Shown: one piece after another, positions 5,384 through 32,883 of the stretch | Layout: each line of letters starts with the position of its first letter | How positions within the stretch are numbered: the first letter of the stretch is position 1 | Source: Welwitschia mirabilis | Taxonomy: Eukaryota | Length of the DNA stretch: 34,729 nucleotides | NCBI GenBank assembly: GCA_051453625.1 | Contig: JBOZIK010000001.1 | Coordinates: 40,239,280-40,274,008, forward strand | Direction of reading: 5' to 3' | Notes under the pieces: generated by a model | What the model saw: only the letters and a program-made list of their open reading frames with translations | The model's database searches: none | Told to the model about the DNA's origin: nothing | Made by a program: the position numbers and the translations under genes

Positions 5384-8300
5384 CATCTTTAACTAATATT
5401 TTATTAGTCCCTTAGTAAAAAGTTAATAAAAAAATGTTAGCATGGAAAAATTAACTAAATAAAAGTGGTAAGTATGAAAATGATATGATAATTTTTGAAA
5501 ATTTTGATTAATTTTTAATGAATAAGGCATTAAAATCGGAAAAAAAAATCAATAAAATTAGATGTCCTACCCCCTAATCAAAATTAAACTTTATCCTCAA
5601 AGTTACAAAGATAGGAAATTTTATATAAGGTTCTTAAGAACAAGTTAATTACAAAATACTAGCACATGATAATAATGTAAGGATAATAAGAAAAACCACA
5701 ACGCAATCTAAGAAAAACCAAAGCATAAAACCTAATGCAAAAACATCATCCACAAATTAAAAATATAGATTTCCTAATTGATGATCATATTTATTAAAAA
5801 TTGTTCAAATTTTATATTAAATTTAAAAAGGATTATAATGTCATACAAATAAGGTATCCTCTAAGTAAATCTAAAAGTAATCAAAATTTAGATAAGCAAA
5901 TCTTTAAGTATATAGGTTAAAGAAAAGTAAATACATAAGCTTCTTCCAATTCCACCCTTTTCATTCTAATTTACCTTTTTTACAATCATTCCTTATTCCT
6001 CATTTCAATCATTTTAATCTAACTGGGCATCTAGTTATATGATATTTTCTCCCAACAAAGTTAACATATTAATATATGAAAGATTCAATGCTGCATTACC
6101 AGTGAACATTTATATCCCTGATGTAGTTGAACATGTCATAAATTAAATCATTAGAGCTACGTTGCCAGTGAGTGTCATAGCCCCGATGCAATTAACTAAA
6201 CCTAATTTTTAATGATCAATAATTAATATGCTTTTCAAGAGTAGATATTTATTTTCTTTTTAATAATCCTTTTCTTATTCAATACATTTAAATGCACATA
6301 AAGGTCCATTGGATTATTAACCCAATCAAGATAATTCTTATCCCTATAAAATGCTTTAAAATAGTTTACTTAGCATGAAAGTAGATTCCACCTTTATTCA
6401 ATCATATTTGCCATTGAAAGACCTTAAGTGAAACTAAACCTTAATAAGTTAACTCAAAAAATAAGTAAAACCTTTTTATGAAAAACTACAAGTAAACTTA
6501 AATTCTATCTAGTTTAAAATGACAAAGTGATCACTTATTAAGGGTTTATTCTAATTAAGGACTACAAATTAGGATCATCTAATTTAAGAACTCATATATG
6601 GATGGAAGGAGAGGGTGATTGATGAAGTTTATTAGGTGGAATGAAAATTAAAGGAAGGGGAAGAGGGGTTTGAGGTGATGAAAATTTATTTAATGGTGTG
6701 AATGAAAGTTGGGCTTTCCTATCTAAAAATGCTTATGATGATGGTAATATAGGTGAAATTATGTGGGTGGTTTGAGGCATGAAAAGGCATCAAAATTTAT
6801 TTTTTAAAACATTTTTAACTTTTTTAAATCAAAATTTATCCTAAAAGAAAAATTGATTCTAAAAGAAAATCCCATTTTAAAATCACAAAACAAAGCTAAA
6901 ATGTTTTCAAGGCATTTTCCAAGGTATTGCATGTTTGAAAGCTCATAATGGTGAATGTAAAATTTAGATGATGAATCAAAATTATACAAAGCATTCAAAG
7001 AAGAGACCAAATCCATATAAACATTTATACATGAATTCATAAAATTTTGAAGACCATCAATGATAACAATAAAATTAATGCATGCAAAATCAGCAATTTT
7101 CTATCCCTTAGCTTGTTTATGTTTGCTCATTAACTCACCCAAGATGTCATTTTGAGATGAAGAAAAGGATGAATTAAAAACCCTGGGTAAAAGCAAATGA
7201 TCATTTAAAGAGGTATGAAAAAAATGATTTCAAATGTACAAATGATTTGTCTTCATCATTAAGGTTTAAGTCTTTCTTAAAAGATGAAAATATCATAATT
7301 GGTTTAAGAGGTTATTAAGAAAGGGTAATAATTCCTTAAAGGGTGGATTATGAAATGGATATTTGTTAATGTTATCCTGTTTGTTAAGGTTCTCAAGGGA
7401 TTATTTCTCACACAGTTGTACAAGTGACAAAGGTTGAGGTTAAAAGAAGTTAATATCATTTCTTTCATTTATGTCACCTATGGATTCATCCTCTATTATG
7501 TAACATTTAAGTTTTCTTCCTATCTCAAATATTTATTGACTTATTACTAATTAATCATCATTGTATGAAATGTCTAGTCCTACTCTAAAATACAATTTAG
7601 ATGCACCTTGATGTTCACTCTCTAAGGCATGTCTAAACTCAGGGTCCTCTTAGATGTCATCATTGGTTTTGTTGTAGGATTCTTCAAGGTTTTCTTTCTC
7701 ATTCCTAAGGAATATGGTTTGGGTTTCATTGGTTCTAATTTCATTATATCTTCAAAATTTTCTAAGTAATTAGATTTATGAAATTTGGGAAGATTTTCTT
7801 CTTATTATTATTGTTAAAGGGCCTTATATATTTGATCATTAGGTTCAAGCATTTGTTGAAAAAATTACTTGAGATTTTCAATGGTTTTCATAGTGGATTC
7901 TTCTGATGATTGGACATGGATTTGAATTGTGCTGGAAGAAGATTTAGAATCACCTTCTAGAAATCTATGAAAGGTATCATTAAAGGGAGGTGAGGTGAAA
8001 TGTTGTATAAGTGAAGATGACAAATATTATTTGAATGATGAAGGATATCTAAAAAGAAATGAAGGGTAAGGATCAAAGGATGATGAATATGACATTGACA
8101 GACATGGATTATGAGACATAATTAAGGCCATGTGATTAAACTCTTATGGGTTAATGTATGAGTCTTAGAATTCATAATTGCAAGGAGATTGATTTATGTA
8201 TAGATGGAGTTGAGGATACCCTTCAAAGGTTTGTATAGGCTGATAAAAGTCTCCTATAGTGTGTTTGGATTAGTTGTGGTATTGGAAGCTATAGGGGTAG

Positions 8301-9150: not shown

Positions 9151-10480
9151 TGATCATAGCCTTATAGTGATTTGGCCTTAAAACTAAGTTTGCACTTATT
9201 TATTGTTCTTCCATATATGAGGTAAATTTAATGAAAAGATATAAGATTATTCTAACTGAAACAAAAACTCAAATAAAACTGAAAATAAGAAAGCTAAGAA
9301 AGAAAGTGATCTTTGATTAACAATGCAAGAAAAAGGACATGCTTCAAGGATCTAGCGATTTGTCCAACTCTCCTCTTCACTCCAATGATTTCTATATCCT
9401 ATAACTTGAAGATTAAATGAGATCCATCTAAAAATTAATAATGCTAAATGAATGTGCAATACTAATAAAAGAATGAAATACACTTAAGGTTAGTCCTATC
9501 TAAATATTGCTAATACTAAATTAATGTATAATAGCAATGAAATGGTTTAAAATAATTCAAGAAATGGTCCTTCCTAAATATTACTAATGCATGTAAATTA
9601 TACAATAATAATAAAAGGATTTAAACCAATTCTTTATTAAACCTGAAAGAAATATACATTACATCAATTGAGGATGAGAAGAGTAAGAACTCCTCAACTA
9701 GCCTTGAATCATTTTGTCCCTAAGAAAGAGTATCAGAGCACCATGATGTCCTAGCCTTCAAGTCCTTTCCACCTGATGCCAACTAAAAGATGTTTACAAT
9801 GGATGCTTAAGGCCCTTTTATAGATGGGAATATGCTTAAGAAGCTACATCATGATCACATTAGGTGTTGTCATTATGTGTTAGATGGGAGTTACATAAGG
9901 GGGTTTACTTAATAGCTGTTACATAAGGAGGGAGCTAGAAATATGTTTGGCATGTAGTCAAAAAGAGGATCCCTTTATCTTCAAGTGTAAACATGACAAC
10001 GTTATGTCCTTTGAGTATTGATGATGCTACCAATAGATGCCATTGATGTGTCTTCATCTTGATCATCTTCGTTGTGCCACATGTTACTGTGATGTGTCGA
10101 TTTGTGCTTCTGCCATGTGTAACTAGAGTTTAAGGTTAACTCTAATTTATTATCTAACTGAGCCCATATGTGCAATGAATTTAATTCCTTGGGAAGGTGT
10201 AGGAACATGAGTTTTTCGAGCTTCTACCTCAGAAAGTTGGCATCACTAGTAGTACTAGCTAGCGAAACTAGTGTTTAGTGCTAGATTTGATCAATTTCTT
10301 CACAATCCTTCATAAGGTACTAATTATTCTGCTCATGTTAATGGAAGTTCATAATTTCATGTAAAAGTAATAAAAGATCAGAAAACATTAATATGTTATA
10401 AAATAATGGATTTTAATGATTCTTCCTATACTAAATTAATCAGTTAACTTACATAGAATGTTAATTTTGGCATGCAAACA
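9151..10480 (-). repeat. 5' LTR of the Athila-like element (1330 bp)
   Basis: Plus strand starts tgatcatag and ends gcatgcaaaca; PBS-like 'ttcttcatgaccaggga' follows on the minus strand (cf. TGGCGCCGTTGCCGGGGA). Confidence 0.85.
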
Positions 10481-10774
10481 CCTGCAAAGCATTAACACAT
10501 ACTAAAAGTGACTAAAATTATTAAGGAATGTGCTAAATGTGCATCATTGTATAACCATACTATGCATAACATAATTGCATTAATTCACAAAAACACACAC
10601 CATTATGATTGAGGAATTCTGTAACTATTCCTTTTATAAGGCTAACATGAATAAACTAAATCTATAAATTAAAATACTTATAATGCTAATAATATAGTGA
10701 AAAAGAATTTAATTGTGTTATGCCCTATATGCATGAACATATATATTTACCTCTATGGGCCAAAGACTATTAAC

Positions 10775-11845: not shown

Positions 11846-11972
11846 GCCTTTTGTCTTAACTGTGCTATTAACTACCTTTCTACCACCTTCACTACGGGTC
11901 TTTATGATCTCTGTTCTTATCTTAATTGTGTGTGTTGATTATGTTTAATTGCTTAAAGCCTGGAAAGAATAC
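11846..11972 (+). repeat. Left copy of the 127-bp direct repeat flanking the Copia element
   Basis: gccttttgtcttaac...tggaaagaatac, abutting the 5' LTR; 11 mismatches and no indels versus 17903-18029. Confidence 0.95.
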
Positions 11973-12213
11973 TGTAAAGATGTGACTCCGATTTGAGCAT
12001 ACATCTAGAAGCACTAATAGCTTTAGGTGGCATACTCGCCCATGGAAATGACATCAAACCTTGAGCCTCCATTGGCTATATAAACAACCTTTGCATCTTG
12101 TTATATTTAGAGAGAAGATAATCAAAATTTGTTGGTGAGTTGTTTGAAGTGGGTTGGATACACAACCTTTGATAGGGCTCTCTCTCTGTGCGTCCTACTA
12201 GGGCTTATTTACA
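11973..12213 (+). repeat. 5' LTR (241 bp)
   Basis: tgtaaagatg...atttaca; 21 mismatches versus 17660-17900; TATA-like 'ctatataaa' at ~12076. Confidence 0.97.
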
Positions 12214-12215
12214 AG

Positions 12216-12228
12216 TGGTATTAGAGCC
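12216..12228 (+). other. Primer binding site (tRNA-iMet)
   Basis: tggtattagagcc, one mismatch to TGGTATCAGAGCC, 2 nt after the LTR. Confidence 0.92.
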
Positions 12229-13598
12229 ATCACCTTTGTCCATTCATGCGATGCACCACGACCATCTTCTGTGACACTGGCACTGCACTTGCACTCACAC
12301 GTGGCTTCGTTATTTCTTAGCTATTTTAAGCCATCTTTGACTAGTCTGTCTTCACTCATTATTGACTCCCATGCGTTTTCATATCCTGCACATTATTCTC
12401 GGTGTTTGTTTCATGCATTCATCTACACCACCCTTTGTGCTTCTCACCTGTGCCAGGTTCTGTCTCTGTCCATACCTGTGTTGACCTCTTCCTATGCCTG
12501 CGCCTCTGTCAGCATTCTATGCTTGCACCGCAGTCTCTTTCGCGTTCTTCCTATATGGCTATTTGCTTGTCCCTCTCGGCTAACTCACTGCATCTGCCTG
12601 CACCATGCTCTCGCATTATTATCGTCGTTGTCTGACGCGGTTCTCTTCTTGTCTCTAGGTATTTTTGCATGCTGCTTGTGGCTTCATTCATAGTCTACAG
12701 TCGAGTATCCTGTGGATCTGTCACTCACTGCGCTATCTGCACAGTCTCTTACTAAACCTTACCACTCAAACTCGTCTCTGCGCTTCGTGTGCTTCCCACA
12801 CTATGTGCTTGGCTCTGCCTCCACCAGCACCGACTTTCACCAGTGCCTACGTTGACTCTTGTCTCCCTGTACTAGCACCGACACATTGCCCTGCCACCAG
12901 CGCATTACCTGCGCATCACCTCTTAGCCTTTATATGACACCCATGCATTTTACTACTCATCACGCTGCCACCTTTGTCCGAAGCTTTGCTGCCTTCTATC
13001 AAGCACTGCCCCCTTGCCCACGCATCATTTTGCTCCTGGCGTTAACATCAACTCTACTGCATTTCCCTCTAGAACTGCACACATCTGGGACACTGCCACT
13101 GAGTCGCCATCCACTCTGCGCATCTCTAAATTGGCATTCACTGCTGCATCTGGAATGCAGTACTTCTGTTTGCACTCTTTACCACAGGCTTATCCAGCAC
13201 ACTTGAGTCTCCCGTCTTTTACACTTCTGCTCTTTGCTTGGCATTCTAGCGTTAACACTCATAATCCCCATCTCCTGCATGGTCAATGCGTGTCTCATTC
13301 TTTTTCTTGTTTATTTTGGTTGTTATTTTAGGTTGAGCCCAGTACATTCTACACCCAAGCGAAAATTGACTATTGAACAAATTGTTTTGTTCTCTCCTAA
13401 GTATTTTTTTTTTTTTTTAATGAGGCCTTTAACTTGTTTTTAGTAAAACACTGAGTGGCCTTAGGGGGTGGTACTTCTTACCACATAGGCTGTTGGTTTA
13501 TCTGTTGAAATAGGTTTTTTTTTAACGTTACCATACATTTAACCTCGGATTCTCTTGTATACAAAAGTTTTTTTTATTTCCAACTCCTCTGTTTTAGG

Positions 13599-16500
13599 AT
13601 GGCCACTGTGACAAAGTTTGACATCAAAAAATTCAATGGTAAATTGAGTTTTTCTATATGGCGTGTTCAGATGAGGGTCATGCTAACACAAAATGGCTTG
13701 AAGAATGCCTTGGATGGTAAAGCAAAAAAACCCGAGGCCATGTCCGACTAGCAATGGAATGAGTTAGACAAAAAGGCCTTGACAGCAATCTAGTTATGCT
13801 TATCCAAGGAGGTACTCCATGAGGTAATCAGTGAAATCACTATTGCTGGTCTATGGATGAAATTAAAAGTGTTATACATGACAAAAAGCCTTGCCAACAA
13901 GCTTTCCCTCAAGAAATGTTTATTCACCATTCGCATGTCTAAAGGTACTCCCATTCAAGAACATCTCAATAAGTTTAATTCCATTCTTTTGGATTTGGAA
14001 AATCTATATGTATACATTGAAGATGAAGACAAGGCAGTTTTGTTAGTTGTCTCTTTACCTCCTACCTATAGGCATTTTAAAGAAATTATGTTGTATAGTG
14101 GATTAGATACCTTATCTTTTGAAGATGTTAAAGAAAATTTATTGTCAAAAGAGAAGTTTAATTTAGACATCTACTCTGAAGAGAAGGGTAAAGGTCTGAT
14201 GATTAGAGGTCGAAGTCATGATAATATACATACGAGAAACTACAAGAAGTCTAAGTCAAAGTCAAGAGGACATAAGTCTAATAGTAAAACCTATCGGTAT
14301 TGTAAAAAAGTAGGACATGAGCTTTTTGAATATTATAAATTGAAAAATAAATAGGACATAGAAGCAAAGAAAAAACAACCTCAATAATTCGCAAAGGCTA
14401 GTATTTTGACACTGATATGAAAGGTGATGTTTTGTTATCAGAATCTTCTTCTGATGATAAAAGTTACTCTAACTGAATTCTTGATTCTGGTTGTACTTTT
14501 CACATATGCCCTCATCGGGACCGGTTTACTACCTTTAAACCCGTTTGCTCTGGGATTGTTTTAATGGATAATAATACCCAGTGTAAGGTTAAAGAAATAG
14601 AAACTATTCAAATCAAAAGCGATGATGGAATCGTCAGGACTCCTAAGGAGGTACACTTTGTTCCTGACCTTAAATGAAACTTAATTTCATTAGGTACTTT
14701 TGAATCAAAATGGTACAAATATGTAGCTGAACATGGAGTTCTAAAAATTATCAAAGTTGCTTTTGCTATGTTTAAGGCTAACCAATGTGGTAGCCTATGT
14801 GTCTTGTAAGGTTTTACCATATCAGGTTCTGCAGCAGTTTCTACTTCTATGCCTGATTCTCATGTTACTCATTTGTGAAACATGTGGCTAGGTCACATGA
14901 GTGAAAAAGGTATGCACATCTTAAGTAAGAAAGATCTTCTCTGTATTCAGCATATTGGTAAATTGGAATTCTATAAATATTGCATTTTTAGCAAATAGAA
15001 ATAAGTTATTTTCTCTACTGCCCTTGATCATACTAAAGGTGTGNNNNNNNNNNNNNNNNNNNNNNNNNNNNNNNNNNNNNNNNNNNNNNNNNNNNNNNNN
15101 NNNNNNNNNNNNNNNNNNNNNNNNNNNNNNNNNNNNNNNNNNNNNNNNNNNNNNNNNNNNNNNNNNNNNNNNNNNNNNNNNNNNNNNNNNNNNNNNNNNN
15201 NNNNNNNNNNNNNNNNNNNNNNNNNNNNNNNNNNNNNNNNNNNNNNNNNNNNNNNNNNNNNNNNNNNNNNNNNNNNNNNNNNNNNNNNNNNNNNNNNNNN
15301 NNNNNNNNNNNNNNNNNNNNNNNNATTAGTGGGAATGCCACAACAGAATGGTGTTATAAAACATATGAATAGAACACTTCTTGAGAGGGCTCGTTGTATG
15401 CTCTCTAATGCAAAATTATGGCATCGATGTGCTTTATGGGTTGAGGCAGTTTCTATCACTTGTTATCTTGTCAGTCGATCTCCACATTCCTCACTGAAGT
15501 TTGATATATTCTAGAAGAGATTTGATCAGGTAATCCTATTAACTACTCTCAGTTAAAAATATTTGTTTGTCCAGCATTTATTCATGCCAATGATGGTAAA
15601 TTAGCACCTAAAGCTATTAAATGCATNNNNNNNNNNNNNNNNNNNNNNNNNNNNNNNNNNNNNNNNNNNNNNNNNNNNNNNNNNNNNNNNNNNNNNNNNN
15701 NNNNNNNNNNNNNNNNNNNNNNNNNNNNNNNNNNNNNNNNNNNNNNNNNNNNNNNNNNNNNNNNNNNNNNNNNNNNNNCTCAAAATATGATAGATATAAA
15801 GTCTAGCAAGCATGTGGAATTAGAGATTACATCCTCTCCACCGACTGTTGTGAATTCCACACCTTCCTCTATTGAAGAAAATAGTGATGAGAATGCTCCA
15901 AGTATCAGTACTCCTGATCAACCACAGCAGGATTATTCAATTAATCGAGATCATTCAAGGAGAAGATAAAGAAACTAGCTAGATATCTTAAAATTGATGA
16001 TGAGTTGCTTACATATGCTCTCTCAGTTGTCTAGGAAATTTCTAAACGTATGGAACCTTCATTTTATTTAGAAGTTGTTTCGTGTGTTGACTCCTCTAAG
16101 TGGTTAATGGTAATGAATGAAGAAATGGACGGTCTTCATAAAAATAAAACTTGGATTTTGTGTGAACTTTCATCTAACCAACGTCATTTGAATTGTAAGT
16201 GGATCTACAAGAAAAAGAAAGAATTCCCAAAGTTGAAAATGCAAGATGAAAAGCACGTTTAGTTGTCAAAGGCTACAACTAAAGAGAAGGTATAGATTTC
16301 CATGAAATTTGTTTACCTGTAGTTCGTCATACTTCAATTCGTGTACTACTTACATTTGTGGTCTTATTTGACATGGAGTTAAATCAACTTAATGTCAAAA
16401 CTACTTTTTTACATGGAAATCTTAGTGAAGAAATCTATATGAAGTAGCATGATGGTTTTATAACCCCAGGAAAAGAATGTTATGTGTCATCTAAAGAAAT

Positions 16501-17620
16501 AATTATATGTCCTTAAACAAGCTTCGCGATAATGGTACAAGAAGTTTGATCCATTTATAATTAGACAGGATTTTCTCAGAAGTTAATATGATTATTGTAT
16601 CTATTATCAGCAGTATTTTAATAAGTTTGTGATATATTTGTTGCTGTACATTGATGACATGTTAATTACTTCTCACAAAAAGTCATTGATTGACAGGTTA
16701 AAATCTCAACTTGATAAGGAATTTGAAATGAAGGATCTAGGTGAATCCAAGAAAATTCTGGGTATGGAAATTTACAAAGATCATCAAGCTAATAAATTAT
16801 TTATCTCATAAATAAAATATGTTGAGAAAGTTCTTAATAGGTTCAATATGTTAAATTATAAACTTGTTTCTACTTCCTTCGCTGCTTACTTCAAATTGTC
16901 TTCGAATCATTGCCTAAAATCTGATAAAGAAATTGAGCATATGTTAAGCATTCCTTATTCTAATGCTGTTGGAAGTTTAATGTATGCTGTGGTCTATACT
17001 AGACCTGATCTCGCATATGCTATTAGTATCGTCAGTTGATACATGCATAATCCTGGAAAGGATCATTAGAATGCAGTAAAATGGATCCTTCATTATTTGA
17101 AGGGCTCTTCTACTTTGGGCTTAGAGTTTGATAGAAGCAAAACTACATCGACTAATGTAGTAGGATTTATTGATTCTGATTATGGTGGTGATTTAGATAG
17201 GCAAAGATCATTTTAGGTTATATTTTTACACTCTGTAATTTTGCCATTAGTTGGAAGGCATCCCTTTAACCTATTGTTGCATTATCAACAACCGATGCAG
17301 AGTATGTTTCAGTAATAGAAAGTATGAAGGAAGCTACATGGCTGCGAGGTCTCATCATTAAATTGGATGTAGCCTAAGGATAAATTGTTGTATTTTGTAA
17401 TAGCCAAAGTGCTATTCATTTTATCAAGAATGATATGTATCACTCAAGGACTAAGCACATTGATGTAAAACATTACTACATTAGAGACACTTTTGCTATA
17501 GGAGACATTGTAGTAGCTAAGATCCATACCTCTGAAAATCCCACTGATATGTTAACTAAGCCACTTCCCACAGTTAAATTCAAATAGTATTTAGCTATAG
17601 TAGGGATCAACAATTGTTAA
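13599..17620 (+). pseudogene. Copia gag-pol polyprotein with stops, frameshifts and two N gaps
   Basis: MATVTKFDIKKFNGKLSFSIWRVQMR (gag start); LYMTKSLANKLSLK; protease (W)ILDSGCTFHICP at ~14475; LGHMSEKG; integrase PQQNGVIKHMNRTLLERARCML; RT LLLYIDDMLI; YSNAVGSLMYA..TRPDLAYA; RNaseH ENPTDMLTKPL. Confidence 0.96.
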
Positions 17621-17648
17621 TAAATCCTCCGTGCATCAAATTTGAGCC

Positions 17649-17659
17649 AAGGTGGAGAT
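17649..17659 (+). other. Polypurine tract
   Basis: aaggtggagat immediately before the 3' LTR. Confidence 0.9.
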
Positions 17660-17900
17660 TGTAAAGATGTGGCTTAGATTTGAGCACACATCCAGAAGTA
17701 CTAATCGCCTTAGGTGGTATACTCACCCATGGAAATGACATCAAACCTTGGGCCTCCATTGGCTATATAAATAACCTTTGCATCTTGTTATTTTTAGAGA
17801 GAAGATAATCAAAATTTGTTGGTGAGTTGTTTGAATTAGGTTGGATGCACAACCTTTGATAGTGCTCTCTCTCTGTGCATCCTGCTAGGGATCATTTACA
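17660..17900 (+). repeat. 3' LTR (241 bp)
   Basis: tgtaaagatg...atttaca, collinear with 11973-12213. Confidence 0.97.
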
Positions 17901-17902
17901 TA

Positions 17903-18029
17903 GCCTTTTGTCTTAACTATGCTGTCAACTACCTTACTACCACCTTCACTACGGGTCTTTATGATCTTTGTTCTTATCTTAATTATGTGTGCTGATTGCG
18001 TTTAATTACCTAAAGCCTGGAAAGAATAC
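17903..18029 (+). repeat. Right copy of the 127-bp direct repeat flanking the Copia element
   Basis: Begins 2 nt after the 3' LTR; matches 11846-11972. Confidence 0.95.
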
Positions 18030-18052
18030 CGTTGCTCCAGTTACATTAGGAG

Positions 18053-19692
18053 ATGGTGTGAATAATGAATACCATAATTTAGTGTGAAGTACAATTACTA
18101 TGTAGGACATAATGGCACAACAGGTTTTTAAGTAGGAAGAGTTAAGCCATGATGGTTCAATATCTATAGTAGTGAGAAACTATGTGAGAAAAAGAGAATA
18201 GTGCTTAGAAATTTTGACCTGTAAAAGAGATCATTATGATCAGAAGAAATAGACAATTGAATCCGATTTCTTTTACTAAAGGTAATCAACAAGAGTACAT
18301 AACTATAAAACTAATCAGTAAGAAGGGCTAGAGGAAGAATGCGCTAGCAGATGACACGTTATCAGAAAAGAAATAATGGCATAGGCTACATAGAAAGTAA
18401 TAAAGAAGATGAGTAGGAAGCTCAAGAGCAAGCAAATTTAGAGAGAGGAGAGAGAACAGAGATCATAAAACAATGGACAAAATGATGGATAAAATAAAGA
18501 GGATCACTTCTTGACAAAAGAGTGGGTAAAAGAGAAACTGAAGGAGATTGTGAGAATAGATTACGTGTAGAAGAAGGTAGCACAATGACAACCTTAGGCA
18601 CAAACAAAAGGCAATAAGAGACGGCCTCTGGGCAGGAAAAAACATGCTAAAAAAATGGGAGAGAGTAGGTGGAGTGCCCTAAGGCACTGATGAAACATAG
18701 TATGGAGACTAGTAAAGCTCTTATTTCAGGAAGCATCAATCAACATTTGAAGATAACTAGAGTTTCCTGAGTGCATGATTGATGTGGTGGCTAATCTTGG
18801 ATTTGATTCGGCCAATGCTAAGACCCTCGATAATAATATCTATTCTGGTTCTCTTGAAAAATGAATTCTGAAGATTCTAGACAACTATAAAAAGTCTTAA
18901 CTACTTGTAAGAAGAAATGCTAAAATGTAAGATCTACTAGGAATCACTGATTCTTATGGAGTCAATCTATTTAATTCCGTTTCTCTCATAACTCTACTAG
19001 ACAGGTTAACTATCCTTGTTCTAAAGGAAGAGTTAGACGAGTACACTGTATGATAAATAGATGAAGAGGATGTAAATTTATTTTTGAGAATATGTGAAGG
19101 GATGTCATTGTGCTTAGAAATGGTTGGAATATCTTTGAAATCAAAAATAGACAAAATATGGGCTCTAGATGCCCTCAAATAAGAGCACAAATGTGGATTC
19201 GGAAAAATTTTTATGATGAGAAAGATCGATTTATTTACCTTCACTTTTAATGAGTTGGATAAATTGCATAAGAGGCCTTCTTAGACATCTATGCATTTTT
19301 CTTTTTAAATGAAAAACCATGGATCGGTTTGCTAAGAATCGTTAGGAATGATATAATGCACATTTTAGAAACTAGTTTTATCATGTTAATCCTATAACGC
19401 CCAGATGCAAGGCGACTTTCGCAATCCTTCTTTACTATGATGTTATGACTTTGGAACTACCCTTTGATGTTAGCAGATGTAAATCTTTGAGATGACTTTC
19501 AGATGCCCACTACTTCGGTTGTGTTACAAAGGGTTTTCTAGTAGCAAAGTCCCTTGTGGAAAACACCTCTATCATAAACATGCCATCTACAATATTGGCA
19601 CTTGGATTTCTTAAAGACACACAATCACAGCTTGAGGTTTCTTTAGACATCAAGCTATAAACTATGTTTGATTGTTTCTCAACCAAGCTAAG
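18053..19692 (+). pseudogene. Decayed NLR immune receptor gene: TIR-like N-terminus, NB-ARC and start of the LRR region
   Basis: Motifs in canonical order across frameshifts. TIR-like KYNYYVGHNG (18087) and VFK*EELSHDGSISIVVRNYVRKRE*CLEIL (18124-18216). Degenerate P-loop HSMETSKAL (18696). Kinase-2-like DNNIYSGSLEK. RNBS-B S*LLVRRN (~18895). RNBS-C-like YGVNLFN. GLPL-like ICEGMSLCLEMVGISLKSK (19090). RNBS-D FTFNELDKLHK/EAFLDIYAFF (~19237-19300). LPFDVSRCKSLR (~19457). LRR-like IINMPSTILALGFLKD (~19571). Possible splice donor AG|GTACC at 19692/19693. NB-ARC is well supported; TIR less so. Confidence 0.75.
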
Positions 19693-20524
19693 GTACCATT
19701 CTATTCCCTCTTCCATTGGATTTATTGTCTTTAATGTTACAAAGCTGTTCTTCTGTGCATTTTTTTTCTTATCAATGAAGCTTTTCAGATAAAGATAAAA
19801 GACACTCTAGTAATACTTTAAAGCAAATAATACAAATTTGTGTAAATTTACTTTTATATTTTCATCATCATTAGTTCTCTGCTAGTACTTTGAATTGTTA
19901 CCTTTACCTATTTCTATCATTTTAAAACTTTGTGTTACTAATTCAAAATTTTTTTTACTATTGTTGGCATCTTTGAATTCTTCTACTTTATTTGAAAAGC
20001 CTTACATTAATTTATATTTAGAAATAAAATCAAAACCATTTGCTTAGAATAAGTCAACCAAATAAATAAAATCTACCATCAGATTAAGGATTAATGCAAG
20101 ACATGTATTACGAATAATTCATGCATGACATCAAATCTTATAGTCTATTAGATGTTTAACCTACTTTTATGAATATTATACTTTTAGCTTCATGTTAATC
20201 ATGGTGAAAGAAGTCATGGACATAATTAATGTTAGAAAGGTTCAAATGGTATGTTATCTTTAGACCCTTTAGCTTAGGTGTGGAAACCCCTGTTATAGAC
20301 TTGGTATTCTAATAATTAACCTACACAAAGTCTTTGATTCACCTCCTAACACAACATAACCTACTATAGGCCTTGATCTCAATTATAGTCTCCTTTCCAA
20401 TAGATCAACAATAGTAATTAAGTTTAAGCTATAACCATGAATTAAACTATGTCACTAGTTATATACTAACATTAGAATATATCATATAGGTAATGTTAAA
20501 TTTTAAACTATTAGAAAAATTAGA

Positions 20525-22519
20525 TGTAACACCTTATATTTTTGTGTATATTAATGTATTTCATTATAATAAATTACATTATGTAATGTTATATTATCTT
20601 ACATTATGCATGTATGTTGTATTATAATGCATATATATCATATGTCATCTTATATTATAATATATTACTTGCTTATATATTATATTATATTATATTATAT
20701 TATATTATATTATATTGCATGATAAGTATAATATTATATTATTTTATGATACGTAATTTCTTATGCATAGTGTGTGTGTATATATATATATATAGTATTT
20801 TATTATATGTCATATTGTATTATTTTATATTATGCTATCTCATATGTATAGTATTATGAGTATATATATTATGAAGGGAAAACATATCTTGTTCTTAAGA
20901 GTATGTTAAGGTTAGAAATAGTCACATGATGAAACAACTATTTAGATGAGATTAAATATTCATCTTGATACCCTGAATAGTGTTGTTATTATAAGTAAAA
21001 TGCTTTTTCATAATATATAGTTGAAATGTAATGCAATATTGGTTAATCTAGCTATGTAACATGGGCATTAGATGATTATCTACTCATGTTAGTACTTCAT
21101 TGATTATATATTTAGCAGGTTAATTAGTTCAATTATAGTCATACTTTATTTCCTAATTTTTTTTAAATGAGGTGTTAAGTATTTTGAAATGTTCTCTAAA
21201 AATAGTATTAGGTTACATGTGACTATATTTAACTTAATAGTTAATTTAATTGGGATATATATTAAACATAGAATACATACTTTTGGTTCATCCTAGGCTA
21301 TTAAATTAGCATGTCAACATTATAAAATAGAAATCATGAAGTCAGGGCTGAAAATACCTTGAATCCAAATCAAGCTTAGATAATTTAAAATTTCACTATG
21401 ATGTGATGGTATTTAGAGATAAATATATAAATATGTGTATAGGGCATAATTTTACTAAACTCCTTTTTATTACTTATTGACATACTATGTTAGCATAATA
21501 AAAGAAGTGGTTATGGTTTTACCCTATCTTAATGATATGTGTTTATGTGATGTGATGTAATTATATTATGCATGGTATAGTTATCTAATGATGTAGGTCT
21601 ATCATAGTTCATAGTGATTATGGTTACCTCAATATGACTTATCACAATCCAAGTATGTATTCTTAAACTTATTTTCTTACATTTTCATGCTTATGAATTG
21701 AATTCTTAAATTAGTTATTTATTACCTTATGTACAAAACGATATATCATTAGTGATTTTCCCCCCTATGATGCTTATTGAAAAAGACCTAGGACCATAAT
21801 TAGCTTCTTTATTTTTAACTTCTACTATACCTAGTCTATTAAGACTAGTGATTAAATTTAGTGGCATATGGACTAGTTCCTTTAAGCATTTTATATATTT
21901 ACATATTATTAGATTCATTGTATTATGTTATAAAAGAAGCAACCATGAGGTACCCTATTGAAATGATGTGTGTGTATGTATACCTATGTGTTAATTGCAT
22001 TTCTACATAATGTTATACTATAGATATATCCATTCCATTAGCTGATACTAAGATGAGGGAGAGGTTTGAGGGATCTCTTTACATGCTTAGTTGATGGGTT
22101 TACTAGTGGTTTTATATATATATATATATTCTTTTCTTCCATTGGCATAGACTAAGATGAGGGAAAGAGTTGAGGGATCTCTTACATGCTTAGCTTCTAT
22201 GTGCCTAATAGATAATTTTGGCCAAGTAACTAGATGGTCACTATATATATTTATTTGGATATCCATATATAATTTATGTTAATAAACATATACATTATTA
22301 TCATTCATGCATTAAAATTTCTTATTAGAAATGAATGTTATAACCTTGAGAGTTTCTAACTAGCTATCTCCTATATTTTTAAACATAGATATGATGCTAA
22401 TGTATGTATATTTTTGTCTAATATCTTTTGATATTATTTCATTTCAATGTGTTATCATGTACTTCTTCTGGTTGAGTTGAATATTATATTCTTGCTTTAG
22501 TTTATGCATAATTTTGCCC
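20525..22519 (+). mobile_element. 5' part of a Tekay/Del-like LTR, interrupted at 22520
   Basis: Starts TGTAACACC (typical Del/Tekay terminus); (TATAT)n-rich 20580-20870; 21405-22519 is collinear with ~23085-24307. Confidence 0.6.
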
Positions 22520-23034: not shown

Positions 23035-25617
23035 TCATTACATTGTGTATTAACAATATATCATTAGTGATTTTCTTTTCTTGTGATAGCATTTAGCAAT
23101 AACTATATAGATATGTATATAGGACATAATTTAACTAAGCCTCTTTTTATTATTTATTAACATTGTAAACAATTTAATTTATTGATTTATCTACTGTGTT
23201 AGCATTATAAAATGAGTAGTTATGGTTTTTCCTTATCATAATGGTATGCGTTTATGTAATGCAATGTAATTATATTGTGCATGGTATAGTTATCCAGTGA
23301 TGCAGGTGTAGCACACTCCTTAGTGACTATGGTTATCTTAATATGCCTTATCAAAATCCAGGTATGTAGCCTTAAACTTATTATCTTACATGTTCATGCT
23401 CATGAATTGAATGTTTTTAGTAGTTATTGTTACATTGTGTACAATGATATTTCATTAGTGATTTTTCTATGATGCTTGTTGAAAATATCTAGGCATAGAA
23501 TTAGCTTCTTTTATCCTTTAATTTCTATGGTACCAAGTCTATTGAGACTAGTGATCCAATTCAGTAGCATGTGGACTAGTTCCTTTGGTCATTTTTATAT
23601 TTATGTATTATTAGATTCATTATATTGTATTATAAAAGGATCATCCATAAGGTACCCTGCTGCATCGACATGTGTGTGTGTGTGTGTGTGTGTATACCCC
23701 TGTGTGTAAATCGTATTTCTACATAATGTTATACTATTGATATATCCCTCTCATTGGCTGATACTAAGAAGAGGGAGAGATTAAAGGGATCTCTTTATAT
23801 GCTTAGTTGATGGATCTACTAATGGTTATTTATACATTTTCTTTCCTCCCATTGGCTAATACTAGGGATCTCTTTACATGCTTAGTTGATGGGTTTACCG
23901 ATGGTTATTTATATATTTTCTTCCCTCCCATTAGTGAAGACTAAGATGAGGGAGAGAGTCGAGGGATTTCTTGACAGGCTTAGCTTCTATGTGTCTAATG
24001 GATATTTTGGCTAAGTGACCAGGGGGTTCACTATATTACATTTGAATACCCATATATGATTTATATTAATTATACATATGCATTATTATTGTTCATGCAT
24101 TAGAATTCCTTATTAGAAAGGACTATTGTGACCTCAAGAGTTTCTGACTGGTTGTATCCTATACTTTTATACATATCTATGAGGCTTATGTATATATATG
24201 TATGAGTAATACGTTTTGGTGACATGTCATTTTAATATGTCATGATACTCTTTTTTTAGTTGAGTTGGATATTGTGCTTTTTGATTAGTTTATGCTTAAG
24301 TTTGCCCATATGCCACTGACACAGACTACCCTTAACTATCATATGCTCATGCATATTAGTGGGGATGGGAATGAGGTCCAATATAGAACTACATGTGATC
24401 TGAACTCCTCTAGATGAGGATACGTAGGCATTGTTGCTTGGTTGTTGTTGCGACCAACCATTCGACCACAACTCACACACTCCTCTAGTGTGTTTTTAAA
24501 TGAGATTTTTTTTTGGATAATCACAAGATGGAACGTGGTGTTAATTAGGTGAGCTATCCTCATATAGTTCTCCTAAGGTGTATCTTGTGAGTTGAGAGGT
24601 GATTATCTTAGNNNNNNNNNNNNNNNNNNNNNNNNNNNNNNNNNNNNNNNNNNNNNNNNNNNNNNNNNNNNNNNNNNNNNNNNNNNNNNNNNNNNNNNNN
24701 NNNNNNNNNNNNNNNNNNNNNNNNNNNNNNNNNNNNNNNNNNNNNNNNNNNNNNNNNNNNNNNNNNNNNNNNNNNNNNNNNNNNNNNNNNNNNNNNNNNN
24801 NNNNNNNNNNNNNNNNNNNNNNNNNNNNNNNNNNNNNNNNNNNNNNNNNNNNNNNNNNNNNNNNNNNNNNNNNNNNNNNNNNNNNNNNNNNNNNNNNNNN
24901 NNNNNNNNNNNNNNNNNNNNNNNNNNNNNNNNNNNNNNNNNNNNNNNNNNNNNNNNNNNNNNNNNNNNNNNNNNNNNNNNNNNNNNNNNNNNNNNNNNNN
25001 NNNNNNNNNNNNNNNNNNNNNNNNNNNNNNNNNNNNNNNNNNNNNNNNNNNNNNNNNNNNNNNNNNNNNNNNNNNNNNNNNNNNNNNNNNNNNNNNNNNN
25101 NNNNNNNNNNNNNNNNNNNNNNNNNNNNNNNNNNNNNNNNNNNNNNNNNNNNNNNNNNNNNNNNNNNNNNNNNNNNNNNNNNNNNNNNNNNNNNNNNNNN
25201 NNNNNNNNNNNNNNNNNNNNNNNNNNNNNNNNNNNNNNNNNNNNNNNNNNNNNNNNNNNNNNNNNNNNNNNNNNNNNNNNNNNNNNNNNNNNNNNNNNNN
25301 NNNNNNNNNNNNNNNNNNNNNNNNNNNNNNNNNNNNNNNNNNNNNNNNNNNNNNNNNNNNNNNNNNNNNNNNNNNNNNNNNNNNNNNNNNNNNNNNNNNN
25401 NNNNNNNNTGGTGTTAATTAGGTGAGCTATCCTCATATAGTACTCCTAAGGTGTATCTTGTGAGTTGAGAGGTGATTATCTTAGTCTCAAACTAATCTAT
25501 CTGCTATAATAATTAATCATATCATGTGAGTTAATTAGGTTAATTTTGTTTTGGAAAGAAAAAAAAGTCCCATGGTTTTCGTGCTTCTTAAGTTCAGCCT
25601 ATGAGCGGGTCATATCA
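23035..25617 (+). mobile_element. 3' part of a Tekay/Del-like LTR (includes a 797-N gap)
   Basis: Homologous to 21405-22519 and, inverted, to 2930-4000/10481-10760. Ends 'gagcgggtcatatca' with no PBS after it, so a 3' or solo LTR. (TG)11 at 23671-23692. Confidence 0.65.
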
Positions 25618-26964
25618 TTATCATTAACATCATGACCTTTGTACACTCTGCCATATGACTTGCATTAATTATTCTTATCTAACCTTGCTTTTTGTGATTT
25701 TGTTCAAATTCATGTCCTTCTCATTCCTGCTTTTATTTACTTAACACTGTTATTATACCTTTATCATTACATCACTAATGATTATATTTTACTCTCTGTT
25801 ATATTTCTCTATCCTTAGATAATTATATTTTACTATTATTTATTCTCTCTATTCTTTTTATGCCCCTCATTCTATGTTACTTATTTTATTTTTTTATACA
25901 TCTTATTCTTGCTACCTATTACTTAATCTATTTTCTTATTATTCTTACTTATATTGTTTATCCTTCTATTCATCTACATTTGATTTTGTACATTTTACTT
26001 GATTTCTCTATGATTACTTTAATCTATATACTTTTCCTATGAATTACTTTACTATACTATTCTTACCTCTTAATCATATGCTTAAATTGTCTTGTACCTT
26101 CAAATTACTTCTCTAGGCTCCTATATCTATACATTATTTACTATAAGCATATTATATTTTTATATGCTTAGTATTTATACTATTATATTTCATTTACTAT
26201 ATCACTTTAACTTTATTATCATATTCTTTCTATAATTCTTTTACTACTCCTATCCTTATCATGTATTCATCCCTTCAAATCTTTACATTTATTTATTATC
26301 TTATTTGCTACTTACTCTCTACTTTCATCATTTATATTAAACATTATTTTATCTAATATTCAATTTTGCTTATTCACTGTTTATCCTATATTACATCTAT
26401 GCCTTTCTACACCCTTTTCATCAATATCCTACCTTACCTTCTCTACCTATATTATTATATCTTATGATATTGTATCATACCTCTTACTACTATATTACCA
26501 TGTTTAGTTATATACCTATTTGCTACTATTTCATTTTCATATTCCCATCTTAAACCTATTATAGACTTCTATTAGGTGTTCCTAGATTTATTAATTTACT
26601 AACTTCTTAATCATGGATTAAATTCTCTAGTCCATGATATTGAGCATGAGAAGGAAGTGAAAGTTACCTAGTGGGTACTACTAGGTTATCTTGATGTTAA
26701 GATATATTCTTTTAATATTGTTTAGTATGTTTATTTTTTGATTAAAATTTGAAAAGTTCATGAAAGATGTAGGGGTATTAGAATTCTCATTTCTCAAGCC
26801 TCGCAAAATGTTGATCAAAACATTGTACTATCCTTACATATATTATTCATATATTTACTATTCTACTTTTTTACTATATTCAACTTACATACTTTATATT
26901 TACATGCCTACATTAACTAAATCAATTTACTAATGCTAAATTACTCATGCTATTATTCTAGAAC

Positions 26965-27155
26965 TGAAGCATTTGTGCTACACTGATTTAAAATGTACTC
27001 TCTAAAGTACTCCTTGGAAATGTCTTATATTTGAAATAGGCAAATAGTCATGACTTATATCCAAAGGTCATGACTTATGAAAATTAGAGGCAAATCGTTG
27101 TGACTTATATCCAAAGGTTAAAACTTATGGAAATTATAGAGAGAAAAAATCTTCA
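26965..27155 (-). repeat. 3' LTR (191 bp) with an internal 50-bp tandem duplication
   Basis: About 32 mismatches plus one 7-bp indel versus 32038-32221 (hand count, ~17%). Confidence 0.93.
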
Positions 27156-27165
27156 ATCCTCCCCC

Positions 27166-30100
27166 TCAAGTTGGTGCATAGATATCACACATGTCCAACT
27201 TGTTAAGGCTTTTTGAAAATATTCAATTTGAGACTTCCTTATTAAGAACATCAACTAATTCATCCTTAAATTGAATTTTAGGAAGTTCTATAATTTTTCC
27301 ATCTAATTTCTTCTTAATGAAGAATCTATCTACTTCAACATGCTTTCTTCGATCATGTTGAATTGGATTATGGGTAGTGTCACATGAAGCTTTATTGTCA
27401 CAATACATCCAAATTGGTTTCTTAGATGGATAATCAAAATCTTACAAAAGTAATCTCAACCATAAGGCTTTACAAAATCCTAGTGTCATACCTCTAAATT
27501 TAACTTTTTCACTTAAGCAAGCAATAAAATTTTGTTTCTTGCTTCTCCATGTAATAAGATTATCACCCACAAATGTGAAATAATCAAAAATTAATCATCT
27601 ATCATTGATTGATCTAGTCTAATATATGTTACTATATGCATCTATGCTTTGATAATCTCTATTTTTAGTAAACAGTATTCCCTTTCTAGGAGCAGACTTC
27701 AAATGCCTCAAAATATGCATGAATGCATTCATATGTTGTTCTTCTAGATTATGCATAAATTGGTTGATAATACTCAATGCATAGGTAAGATCTGATCTAG
27801 TGTGGGATAAGTACATCAACCTCCCTATTAGCCTTTGGTATCTCCTTTTATCAACTAGTATTTGTTTTAACTCAATACATAACTTCAAGCCTTCCTCAAT
27901 GAGTGTATTAGCTGATTGACATGATGACATTTTGGTCTCTTTTAATAAAGTCTAATGCATATTTCCTTTAAGACAAAAATATTCCTTTCACTTTGATCCT
28001 AAGAAAATATCTCAAGGAATCAGGGTCTTTCATTTCAAATTCTTTGGATAAATACTCTTGTAAAACCTTCCTTTCTTTTGGATCATTCCTTGTAACTATC
28101 ATGTCATCCACATATACAATGAGTGTAATGATCTTATCCTACTGTTTTTTCAAAAATAGAGGATGGTCTTAATTGCTTTGATGGTTCAAATGCTATTATA
28201 GACTTTCTAAATCTTCCAAATCATGCTCGTAGAGACTGTTTTAGCTTATACCATGATTTCTTCTATCTGCACACCTTTTGACTATGCTTTTCTAGGGCCA
28301 TGCATCCTGGTGAAAGCTCCATATAAACTTCTTCAGATAATTCTTTAAGCAAAAAGGCATTTTTTACATCAAATTATTGTAATGATGAATTTAAGTTTTC
28401 TACTAAGGATAGCAATACCTTGACAGTGTTGACTTTAGCTATAGATGAAAATGNNNNNNNNNNCCATAGGTCTTACTTTAAATCATTCAATCATGCCATT
28501 TGCTTTATACTTCATAGTGTAAATACATTGACATCTTATTGGTTTCTTTCCTGGTGGGCAATCAATAAGGTCCCAAGTTTCATTCTTTTACAAGGAGTTC
28601 ATTTCCTCATTCATAGCAGCTTTCCACCTTGAATCAATTAAGGCTTCTTGCATACTGTTAGGAATAGCTATAGTGGATAATTAATTAACAAATGACTAAT
28701 TTAATTTTTACAACTTGTGGTTAGATACAAAATGACTCATGGGATATTTAACTTTACTTGAAAGTTAAGGTTTATATGTGGGTTTAGGAATACCTCTAGT
28801 AAGAAGTTCTAGTAGTTTTTTTCTTGAAGGCTCAAGTATTAAATCAGAAACATCCTTAGTAAACAGCTAATGTAATATATTAGTGAGGGGATCAAATTAT
28901 TCGATTGATGGATTTTCTTATTCAATCACTTCTTCAACTTCTAAATAATCATTAACATTATGATTAAAAGCTACACCACTTATATATGAATTGTTGCCAT
29001 CATTTTTTTTAATAATCTGCTAATTTAGAGTCTAAATCTCCNNNNNNNNNNNNNNNNNNNNNNNNNNNNNNNNNNNNNNNNNNNNNNNNNNNNNNNNNNN
29101 NNNNNNNNNNNNNNNNNNNNNNNNNNNNNNNNNNNNNNNNNNNNNNNNNNNNNNNNNNNNNNNNNNNNNNNNNNNNNNNNNNNNNNNNNNNNNNNNNNNN
29201 NNNNNNNNNNNNNNNNNNNNNNNNNNNNNNNNNNNNNNNNNNNNNNNNNNNNNNNNNNNNNNNNNNNNNNNNNNNNNNNNNNNNNNNNNNNNNNNNNNNN
29301 NNNNNNNNNNNNNNNNNNNNNNNNNNNNNNNNNNNNNNNNNNNNNNNNNNNNNNNNNNNNNNNNNNNNNNNNNNNNNNNNNNNNNNNNNNNNNNNNNNNN
29401 NNNNNNNNNNNNNNNNNNNNNNNNNNNNNNNNNNNNNNNNNNNNNNNNNNNNNNNNNNNNNNNNNNNNNNNNNNNNNNNNNNNNNNNNNNNNNNNNNNNN
29501 NNNNNNNNNNNNNNNNNNNNNNNNNNNNNNNNNNNNNNNNNNNNNNNNNNNNNNNNNNNNNNNNNNNNNNNNNNNNNNNNNNNNNNNNNNNNNNNNNNNN
29601 NNNNNNNNNNNNNNNNNNNNNNNNTTTTTAATAATCTGCTAATTTAGAGTCTAAATCTCCTTTTGGTACTCCCCCTGAAATCTAGACTTAAAGGAAAAAT
29701 ACATTGAGTTTTCATGAAAAAGTACATCTAATGTTATAAACATTCATTGTATTGGAGGATGATAACATTTGTAGCCCTTCTAATGCATAGCATACTCCAA
29801 AAAAACACATATTAAAGCTTGTGAATCCAACTTATTACACTGATGCTTATGAAAATGTACAAATACTACACAACCAAAGATATGAGAAGGTAAATTAGGA
29901 ATACTTGAAGCAACCAAGCATCACTAAGGGCTTGGAATGATATTCGAAAATCAATAGTTATTAATGGAGTTTGATTAATTAAATATGTTGTAGTGGTAAG
30001 TGCTTCCCCCCAATAAGATAATGGCATATGATATTCAATTAGTGAAGCATGAAAAACTTCTAGTAAATTTTGAATTTTTCTCTCGATAACCTTAGAGTTT

Positions 30101-31960: not shown

Positions 31961-32037
31961 CACTCTTTTTTTTCCTTTTTGTTTGAAAACCTTTCTAATT
32001 TGTGGATTTTGTACTAGTAATGGCTCTGACACCAAAT

Positions 32038-32221
32038 TGAAGCATCTATGCTACACTGATATGGAATCTGTTCTCTAAAGTACTCCTTGAAAGCATCTTG
32101 TATTTGAAAGAGGCAAAGAGATGTAACTTATATCCAAAGGTCGTGACTTATGGAAATTAGAGACAAAGAGTTATGACAAAAGATCATGACTTATGGAAAT
32201 TGTAGAGAGTAAAAATCTTCA
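32038..32221 (-). repeat. 5' LTR (184 bp)
   Basis: tgaagcat...aatcttca, 3 nt from the PBS. Confidence 0.93.
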
Positions 32222-32357: not shown

Positions 32358-32619
32358 CGCCTCTAAAGCTTTCGTATGCTAAGGATATGTGAAAAGAGAC
32401 GTCTTTTTCATGAATTTAAAAACTCCTGAGACCTTAGTATCCCTTCGTGAAATACAATTAAGTCCCCTCAATGTCAGTTGATCATGCCGAAGAATATTTT
32501 AAATCTTACAGAACTTATAGAGAAATTGATCAAGATGTTGATTAATCATTCCAACTCGCTCCATAATTGTCATGTTGATGAACATTTTGTCAGCTTAGTT
32601 TCAAAGCTTGCCAATTCCT
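32358..32619 (+). pseudogene. Possible decayed LRR exon, probably a continuation of the NLR at 18053-19692
   Basis: LRR-like pieces in several frames: RL*SFRMLRIC, NLKTPETLVSLREIQL, CQLIMPKNILNLTELIE, FQSLP. Cut at 32620 by a Copia LTR. Confidence 0.4.
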
Positions 32620-32845
32620 TGTTAAAAGGGGATCCTCAGATTCAAGCACTCTTAGTAGTCTATTCTTGTAATAATTACTAGACAACATATGAATAGCAAA
32701 ATGGCGTACTAGAGCCATGACACTAGGTATTACTTTATAGGAGTCAAGCGCCAATAGGTTTGTAGAATACGGTGGGTAGCTCTCTGCTGTCACCGCCCTT
32801 GAGAATGTTTGGATGTGTACCCAATGTGAGCCACACATCCCAACA
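32620..32845 (-). repeat. 3' LTR (~226 bp)
   Basis: Starts TGTTGG directly after the PPT; TATA-like cctataaag; the far end (TTAACA at 32620) is inferred because the partner LTR is outside the window. Confidence 0.7.
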
Positions 32846-32883
32846 ATCTCTACCTTGGCTCAAATGGATTACATTTACAGTAT

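Follow-up and report, generated by a model that had tools for sequence, protein, structure and literature searches.

Positions 18053 to 19692 of a 34,729-nt stretch of DNA (contig JBOZIK010000001.1, 40,239,280 to 40,274,008; hereafter the window) raise the question of whether a series of motif-like strings, interrupted by stops and frameshifts, is what is left of an NLR (nucleotide-binding leucine-rich repeat) gene and, if so, of which class. A preliminary description of the window had read this span as a hidden fossil gene of the TIR-NB-ARC-LRR (TNL) type that the open reading frame (ORF) track had missed. A hidden, decayed NB-ARC gene remnant is indeed present, on the + strand at 18826-19504, where it takes up ~680 bp (~40%) of the 1,640 bp claimed; the remainder of the span found no support. 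The best explanation is that this relic is a dead, non-coding remnant of an NB-ARC-LRR gene, whose parent probably belonged to, or stood nearest to, an unconventional non-TIR group of NLRs found mainly in gymnosperms.

Homology searches and controls

The read-through translation of 18694-19287 (198 aa, with stops entered as X) was compared by phmmer with 1,835,955,588 representative proteins. Two proteins matched at E ≤ 0.001, and both are NB-ARC proteins: P0001 (E 3.8e-5) and P0002 (E 4.8e-5), the values being already corrected for the 1.84e9 targets. P0001 is a TNL-type fragment in which Pfam recognizes NB-ARC (1e-43) and a ROQ1-type winged helix (WHD_ROQ1, 7e-17), and P0002, a transcriptome ORF, contains a Pfam NB-ARC domain (6.3e-24) plus LRRs. 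Query residues 45-191 align with residues 90-234 of P0002. When P0002 was compared with the window by tblastn, it produced three collinear + strand high-scoring segment pairs (HSPs), each in a different frame: residues 165-234 with 19057-19266 (E 4e-8), residues 219-268 with 19218-19373 (E 0.19), where EAFLDICAFF stands opposite EAFLDIYAFFF, and residues 384-416 with 19394-19492 (E 2e-4), where P0003, P0004 and P0010 also match. The last two of these HSPs lie mostly outside the query that found P0002, and therefore constitute independent confirmation. At least one HSP at E ≤ 1 inside 18901-19501 was obtained with 11 of the 12 NB-ARC proteins fetched, the exception being P0011, and the single off-target HSP from this set fell in the reverse transcriptase of a copia element (E 0.12).

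A clade profile was built from P0002-P0009 and searched without filters against the six read-through frames of the window. Its main match lies at 18826-19275 (19.0-19.6 bits, E 6e-8 to 1e-7), followed by a match to RNBS-D at 19230-19370 (E 0.05-0.12) and one to the linker and first LRR at 19397-19504 (6.2-6.8 bits, E 5e-4 to 7e-4); the corresponding profile positions are given in Table 1. The profile matched nowhere else in the six frames; a minus-strand stretch at 31230-31433 reached a full-sequence E of 0.45, but with zero domains over the reporting threshold. As controls, the window was codon-shuffled locally 100 times and also reversed, giving 606 frames in all, among which the maximum score was 1.8 bits, as against 19.6 and 6.8 bits for the main and linker/LRR pieces of the relic. 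The RNBS-D piece, which alone scores -0.0 bits and is beaten by 5 of the 606 controls, was accepted because it is adjacent to, and collinear with, the other pieces. Because P0002 had been selected by the relic itself, the profile was rebuilt from P0003-P0010 only. With this profile the linker/LRR piece scored 8.3 bits and the main piece 4.1 bits against a control maximum of 2.7, and these were the top two of 612 frames. Significant similarity to NB-ARC proteins, with the motifs in their proper order, places the relic in the NB-ARC family.

The check proposed in the preliminary description, a scan with the Pfam TIR and NB-ARC models, was silent for both at E ≤ 10, and NB-ARC emerged through phmmer and the clade profile. 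Read with stops as X, the three + frames of 17901-20302 contained no Pfam family whatever at E ≤ 10, and the minus-strand read-through frames of the relic region contained no relevant family. Two Pfam matches below the cut-offs, CZB (E 0.084, in shorter + strand pieces) and Prion (E 0.036), were taken as noise. A search of the whole window with Rfam gave no matches. The same read-through method recovered RVT_2 in the neighbouring decayed copia element, which indicates that the method works and that its failure here simply reflects stronger decay or greater divergence of the candidate. With the Pfam NB-ARC model silent on the relic, membership rests on individual NB-ARC proteins and the clade profile; the signal is visible only against relatives that are close enough.

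Extent and structure of the relic

Kinase-2 to RNBS-D stand in order in the relic, and the next part present is the first LRR. Seven stops in frame and two frame changes interrupt the relic, and ~93 residues are missing at the winged-helix/MHD position. The main piece holds kinase-2 (LDNN), an RNBS-B-like string (LLV-RRNAK), the RNBS-C region, a GLPL-like string (EGMSLCLEMVG) and the helix preceding RNBS-D, labels which we take to apply from position in the profile. The first frame change occurs near 19266-19272, between the main piece and the RNBS-D piece. Residues 269-383 of P0002 have no counterpart in the window by tblastn, and the junction that follows RNBS-D may be read as a ~270-bp deletion plus the second frame change. 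The strings 'DN...LEK...LLV.RN', 'CEGMSLCLEMVG' and 'EAFLDIYAFF', which had been put forward as kinase-2 to RNBS-D, stand in order on the + strand beyond chance expectation, and most of the NB-ARC motif calls of the preliminary description are accurate.

Table 1. Coordinates of the relic, of the adjoining regions once assigned to it, and of the upstream copia element (window positions)
Feature	Position	Strand	Description
NB-ARC relic, main piece	18826..19269	+	148 codons, 6 in-frame stops; profile positions 294-446
RNBS-D piece (EAFLDIYAFFF...)	19272..19373	+	34 codons, 0 stops; profile positions 432-476
Junction	19374..19396	+	~93 profile positions absent (476 to 569): winged-helix domain, MHD/VHD motif
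Linker and first-LRR motif (..CKATFAILLYYDVMTLELPFDVSRCKSLR and a stop)	19397..19504	+	third frame, 36 codons, 1 stop; profile positions 569-605
'TIR', purine-rich spacer and 'P-loop' region of the preliminary description	18053..18825	+	not shown as part of the relic; purine-rich
Further 'LRR-like' region of the preliminary description	19505..19692	+	without statistical support; IPSSIG-like strings readable by eye only
copia element	11973-17900	+	241-nt LTRs (long terminal repeats) 11973-12213 and 17660-17900, 91% identical

Neither flank of the relic yielded further parts of an NLR gene. In 18053-18825 the clade profile found no P-loop, RNBS-A or N-terminal part, its best match (E 0.47) falling in an unrelated profile region, and nothing upstream of 18826 matched profile positions below 294; the degenerate P-loop described there was thus not recovered. 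The strings at 18053-18280 that had been likened to a TIR domain fared no better: TIR and TIR_2 (PF01582/PF13676) had no Pfam match at E ≤ 10 in the + frames of 17901-20302 or 18040-18300, and tblastn with P0012, which bears a TIR, yielded no HSP upstream of 19066. A TIR could still escape these searches if decay were extreme. Pfam, tblastn (no HSP at E ≤ 1) and the profile (best E 0.84, in an N-terminal profile region) all failed to detect an LRR downstream of 19504. The ROQ1-type winged-helix domain (PF23282) had no Pfam match in the relic, where its region falls in the missing ~93 positions, and no post-LRR domain was found; a single LRR-start motif survives. Elsewhere in the window, TIR and LRR remnants were probed with the clade profile and tblastn only.

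Between the copia flank and the relic lies a purine-rich stretch, 18280-18800, with a GC skew of +0.24 and an AT skew of +0.22. Neither of its strands matched a protein family or the profile.

Assignment to an NLR class

Relatives of P0002 were collected by a word-indexed search with its residues 1-420, in which 7,999 candidates were scored. Eleven proteins, including P0002 itself, were found at E ≤ 1e-5; eight others reached E 3e-25 or better, and those named among the eight come from Taxus chinensis (2) and Ginkgo (Gb_18504). Two angiosperm TNL-type proteins were far weaker (2e-9 and 1e-8). A Pfam TIR was found in none of the seven members of this gymnosperm-type clade that were scanned (P0002, P0003-P0007 and P0009). 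Among solved structures, the NB-ARC of P0002 is best matched by ROQ1 (7e-40), ahead of MLA13 (6e-11) and Sr35 (3e-8). Judged by these comparisons, the clade appears to combine an NB-ARC nearer to those of TIR-NLRs than to those of coiled-coil NLRs (CC-NLRs) with an N-terminus that is probably not a TIR.

The RNBS-D motif distinguishes the two groups. It reads FxDIC[A/S/Y]FF, with cysteine at position 6, in 9/9 clade members (P0002-P0010), and FLD[IV][AT]C, with cysteine at position 7, in 3/3 TNL-type proteins. The relic has FLDIYAFF, in which position 4 is D and position 6 is Y (the numbering being inferred from passages of the text of PMC6691002). The tyrosine (TAT) stands where the clade has cysteine (TGT), which leaves the relic one G>A change from FLDICAFF and two substitutions from the TNL form FLDIACFF. 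Its RNBS-D, which had been taken as characteristic of TIR-NLRs, is accordingly nearer to the clade form. A valine precedes HD in 4/9 clade members. Over 168 aligned columns the relic is 31.5% identical to P0002, 22-29% to the other eight clade members and 16-20% to the three TNL-type proteins. In a maximum-likelihood tree the relic is sister to P0002 (support 86/85), inside the nine-protein gymnosperm-type clade, and a 100/99 branch parts this clade, with the relic, from the three TNL-type proteins. A profile made from these three sequences scored the relic at -1.1 bits, below five shuffled frames.

Taken together, these comparisons indicate that the relic groups with a non-TIR NB-ARC-LRR clade and not with the TIR-type NLRs. 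The preliminary description had itself named an NB-ARC grouping with CNLs or RNLs, together with the lack of a TIR match, as decisive against a TNL, and by its own test the TNL assignment does not hold. The D4/C6 form of RNBS-D in 9/9 clade members and the VHD in 4/9 lead us to equate the clade, with reserve, with the group named CNL2 in conifers (see the final section).

Two further observations concern the library proteins. P0003-P0006 share a conserved N-terminal region of 200-340 aa to which no Pfam family corresponds; for P0004, the language-model look-alikes of this N-terminus belong to Rx_N, MLKL_N and RPW8 clusters (scores 0.78-0.84, taken as leads only) and hint that gymnosperm-type NLRs may carry a helical-bundle N-terminal domain. 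P0001 (528 aa) contains the same ~119-aa NB-ARC segment three times in tandem, which is either a real triplication or a mis-assembly in its source.

Decay of the gene

The three pieces of the relic contain 7 stops per 218 codons, fewer than the 16.6 predicted from base composition (Poisson P = 0.007), which fits a former, decayed reading frame. The decay is extreme, such that Pfam fails to recognize the domain. In the history that we propose, an NB-ARC-LRR gene of the CNL2-like group would first have been inactivated. Deletions would then have removed its 5' part (N-terminal domain, P-loop and RNBS-A), the winged-helix/MHD segment and nearly all of the LRR. Stops, frameshifts and transition mutations would have built up afterwards, in keeping with a presumed methylation-driven C>T/G>A decay that marks the whole window. 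P-loop and MHD are needed for function, and the relic has its MHD region deleted and 7 stops in frame; we infer that the relic decayed where it lies and serves no function today.

Genomic setting

The window, AT-rich eukaryotic DNA with the look of a plant, has 31.2% GC when its 2,406 N are left out, with a CpG observed/expected ratio of 0.27, and is densely packed with Ty1/copia remains. The relic lies downstream of the copia element listed in Table 1, and the span first claimed for it starts 153 bp past the 3' LTR of this element. Apart from its LTRs, the element has a primer-binding-site-like string at 12216, which we take to resemble an initiator tRNA-Met site, a gag domain (PF14223, 6e-24) and a broken RVT_2 (5e-26 and 1e-17). 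At E ≤ 1e-10 its gag (186 aa) matched 56 proteins, the top one at 70% identity. The named ones come from Capsicum baccatum (67%), Zingiber officinale (60-63%) and Orobanche (57-59%), and also from Tanacetum and Rumex; there is no gymnosperm name among the 56, though the database includes Taxus proteins. These matches suggest an angiosperm, and would suit a monocot as well as a dicot.

Directly outside the copia LTRs is a 130-nt direct duplication (11846-11975 and 17903-18032), 91% identical like the LTRs themselves, so that what flanks the element is this duplication instead of a short target-site duplication. One possible origin is that two insertions lying 130 bp apart recombined. From the primer-binding site to gag, 12200-13400 is a ~1.2-kb pyrimidine-rich stretch of 40-47% GC in a window of 31% GC, with ORFs of 89-163 aa; the two of these that were scanned, 12202-12693 and 12927-13331, have no Pfam match. 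Further copia remains lie on the minus strand at 26962-32206, with gag_pre-integrs and Pol_BBD and with repeats 26962-27140 and 32035-32206 spaced 5,073 nt apart, and at 32590-34719, which is an inverted homologue (79-91%) of 15792-17612. Direct repeats also pair 4011-5384 with 9162-10481 (76-87% identical, spacing ~5.1-5.25 kb) and 21470-22121 with 23179-23837 (77-85% identical, spacing ~1.7 kb); tandem duplication could account for both pairs, or they could represent the LTRs of old, non-autonomous elements. A 797-N gap is bordered on each side by a 76-nt repeat (24536-24611 and 25409-25484; 99% identity), which looks like a gap-closing or scaffolding artefact. The window contains nine N runs of 10 to 797 bases, which suggest an older short-read scaffold assembly.

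Alternative explanations

Several observations weigh against the reading of the relic as a remnant of a CNL2-like, mainly gymnosperm NLR gene. At E ≤ 10 there was no match to the relic from the Pfam NB-ARC model, from 177,635 PDB sequences (phmmer) or from a word-indexed protein search in which 927 candidates were considered. The tree contained nine gymnosperm-type and three TNL-type references and no canonical CNL, RNL or TNP, its columns, chosen among those that the relic occupies, were aligned with the gymnosperm-type clade profile, which favours that clade, and the branch of the relic is very long (2.51), making its placement uncertain. P0002 is nearest by selection, and even so is only 31.5% identical to the relic. 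VHD occurs in only 4/9 clade members, and the clade was equated with CNL2 by the text description in passages of PMC6691002 alone. Finally, the copia gag relatives suggest an angiosperm host, where the CNL2-like clade is sporadic according to the passages of PMC6691002 consulted; given this angiosperm-like gag, either the host is unusual or the range of the clade is wider than known.

The silence of Pfam and of the solved NLR structures is also what would be expected if AT-rich sequence, read through stops and frameshifts, had spelled NB-ARC-like strings by chance, and the free frame-hopping of the preliminary description and the weakness of the RNBS-D piece when taken alone point the same way. 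Such an accident is most improbable, since an E of ~4e-5 that already allows for 1.84e9 targets singled out two proteins that are both NB-ARC, P0002 also matches, in the proper order, parts of the window that the original query did not include, and the signal stands over all 606 controls and persists without P0002; chance resemblance is close to refuted. A full TIR-NB-ARC-LRR fossil, whose TIR remnants would occupy 18053-18280 and whose P-loop would be degenerate, has more in its favour, in that the clade NB-ARC is nearer to ROQ1 than to CC-NLRs, one library match (P0001) is TNL-type with WHD_ROQ1, the FLDI..FF form of the relic RNBS-D resembles that of TNLs more than that of CNLs, and a TIR could have decayed past detection. 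We nevertheless regard it as quite unlikely: none of the + frames contains a TIR, TIR_2 or NB-ARC family at E ≤ 10, P0012, a protein with a TIR, yields no upstream HSP, and the TNL-type profile scores the relic at -1.1 bits, under five shuffled frames. Identity is 16-20% to TNL-type proteins against 22-32% to the non-TIR clade, with the 100/99 branch between them, the RNBS-D cysteine position fits the non-TIR clade, and a TIR is present in 0/7 of the clade relatives scanned. It is likewise unlikely that a transposon or ectopic recombination brought a moved or duplicated piece of an NLR gene to this locus, where no complete gene would ever have stood. This explanation would account for an internal slice of a gene without 5' or 3' ends, in a window that is transposon-derived as far as it can be annotated, with a copia end 925 bp upstream of the relic start and the odd 130-nt duplication at the copia flanks. 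On the other side, around 17900-21500 there are no terminal inverted repeats or element boundaries, only short, weak inverted repeats, a blastn search with 18040-19800 found no second copy in the window (only 17-20 nt matches), and plain decay also yields internal deletions and truncation. Decay in place and movement by a transposon are both possible histories for the relic, a point that likewise counts against our preferred account of a gene that decayed where it stood.

Significance of the relic

NLR pseudogenes are common, and the fragment itself is therefore ordinary, unless this subfamily is absent from its host. It is a previously undescribed, very decayed fragment of an NLR type that is itself already known. 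What it adds is a demonstration that a remnant invisible to Pfam and to searches of structure sequences can still be identified if an exhaustive search is combined with a subsequent clade-specific profile, an approach useful for finding deep NLR fossils. In addition, the class it indicates is not the expected one but a non-TIR subfamily that has received little study and is reported to be nearly restricted to conifers.

A bolder reading, which we put forward tentatively and consider doubtful, is that the host is a flowering plant and the relic a fossil of the gymnosperm-enriched, non-TIR CNL2-like subfamily, whose NB-ARC is a sister form to that of TIR-NLRs. If this were true, the subfamily would have been present in the ancestors of that angiosperm lineage and later lost, a second and so far unnoticed loss of an NLR class beside the known loss of TNLs. 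Dating and syntenic copies would then make the loss of CNL2-like genes traceable. If the host is an angiosperm, especially one of a TIR-NLR-less lineage, such fossils could show when and how NLR classes vanished.

Comparison with known systems

The relic resembles TNLs such as ROQ1 (PDB 7jlu/7jlv) in that the clade NB-ARC finds its best match in ROQ1, its RNBS-D has the FLDI..FF form, and P0001, one of the two library matches, is TNL-type with WHD_ROQ1. It differs in that no TIR or post-LRR domain was detected, the winged helix is deleted, the RNBS-D cysteine position is another one, and its identity to TNL-type proteins is lower, with a separate place in the tree. The absence of TNLs from monocots is well documented (abstract of PMC2763876), and is called an enduring enigma in a passage of PMC11789945.

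The closest parallel is CNL2 of conifers, a non-TIR group characterized in passages of Van Ghelder et al. (2019, Sci Rep 9:11614, PMC6691002) by 'C6 after D4 in RNBS-D, a VHD motif'. According to these passages CNL2 makes up 6% of assigned conifer NLR transcripts, and NB-ARCs of this type are 'only sporadic' in angiosperms, with a 'near absence' outside conifers. A literature search for CNL2 together with NLR and conifer yielded this paper alone, and one for the motif string FLDIC together with NB-ARC found none. P0002-P0010 resemble CNL2 in their D4/C6 RNBS-D (9/9), VHD (4/9), gymnosperm names and lack of a Pfam TIR (0/7 scanned), and the relic retains FLDI-Y-AFF, with position 6 one G>A from cysteine. 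As a fragment without P-loop, MHD/VHD or N-terminus the relic differs from CNL2, and with VHD and N-terminus absent two of the three CNL2 signatures are unreadable in it.

With ordinary NLR pseudogenes in transposon-rich plant DNA the relic shares stops, frameshifts, internal deletion, truncation and neighbouring LTR retrotransposons. It differs from them in the extremity of its decay and in its affinity to a rarely described subfamily.

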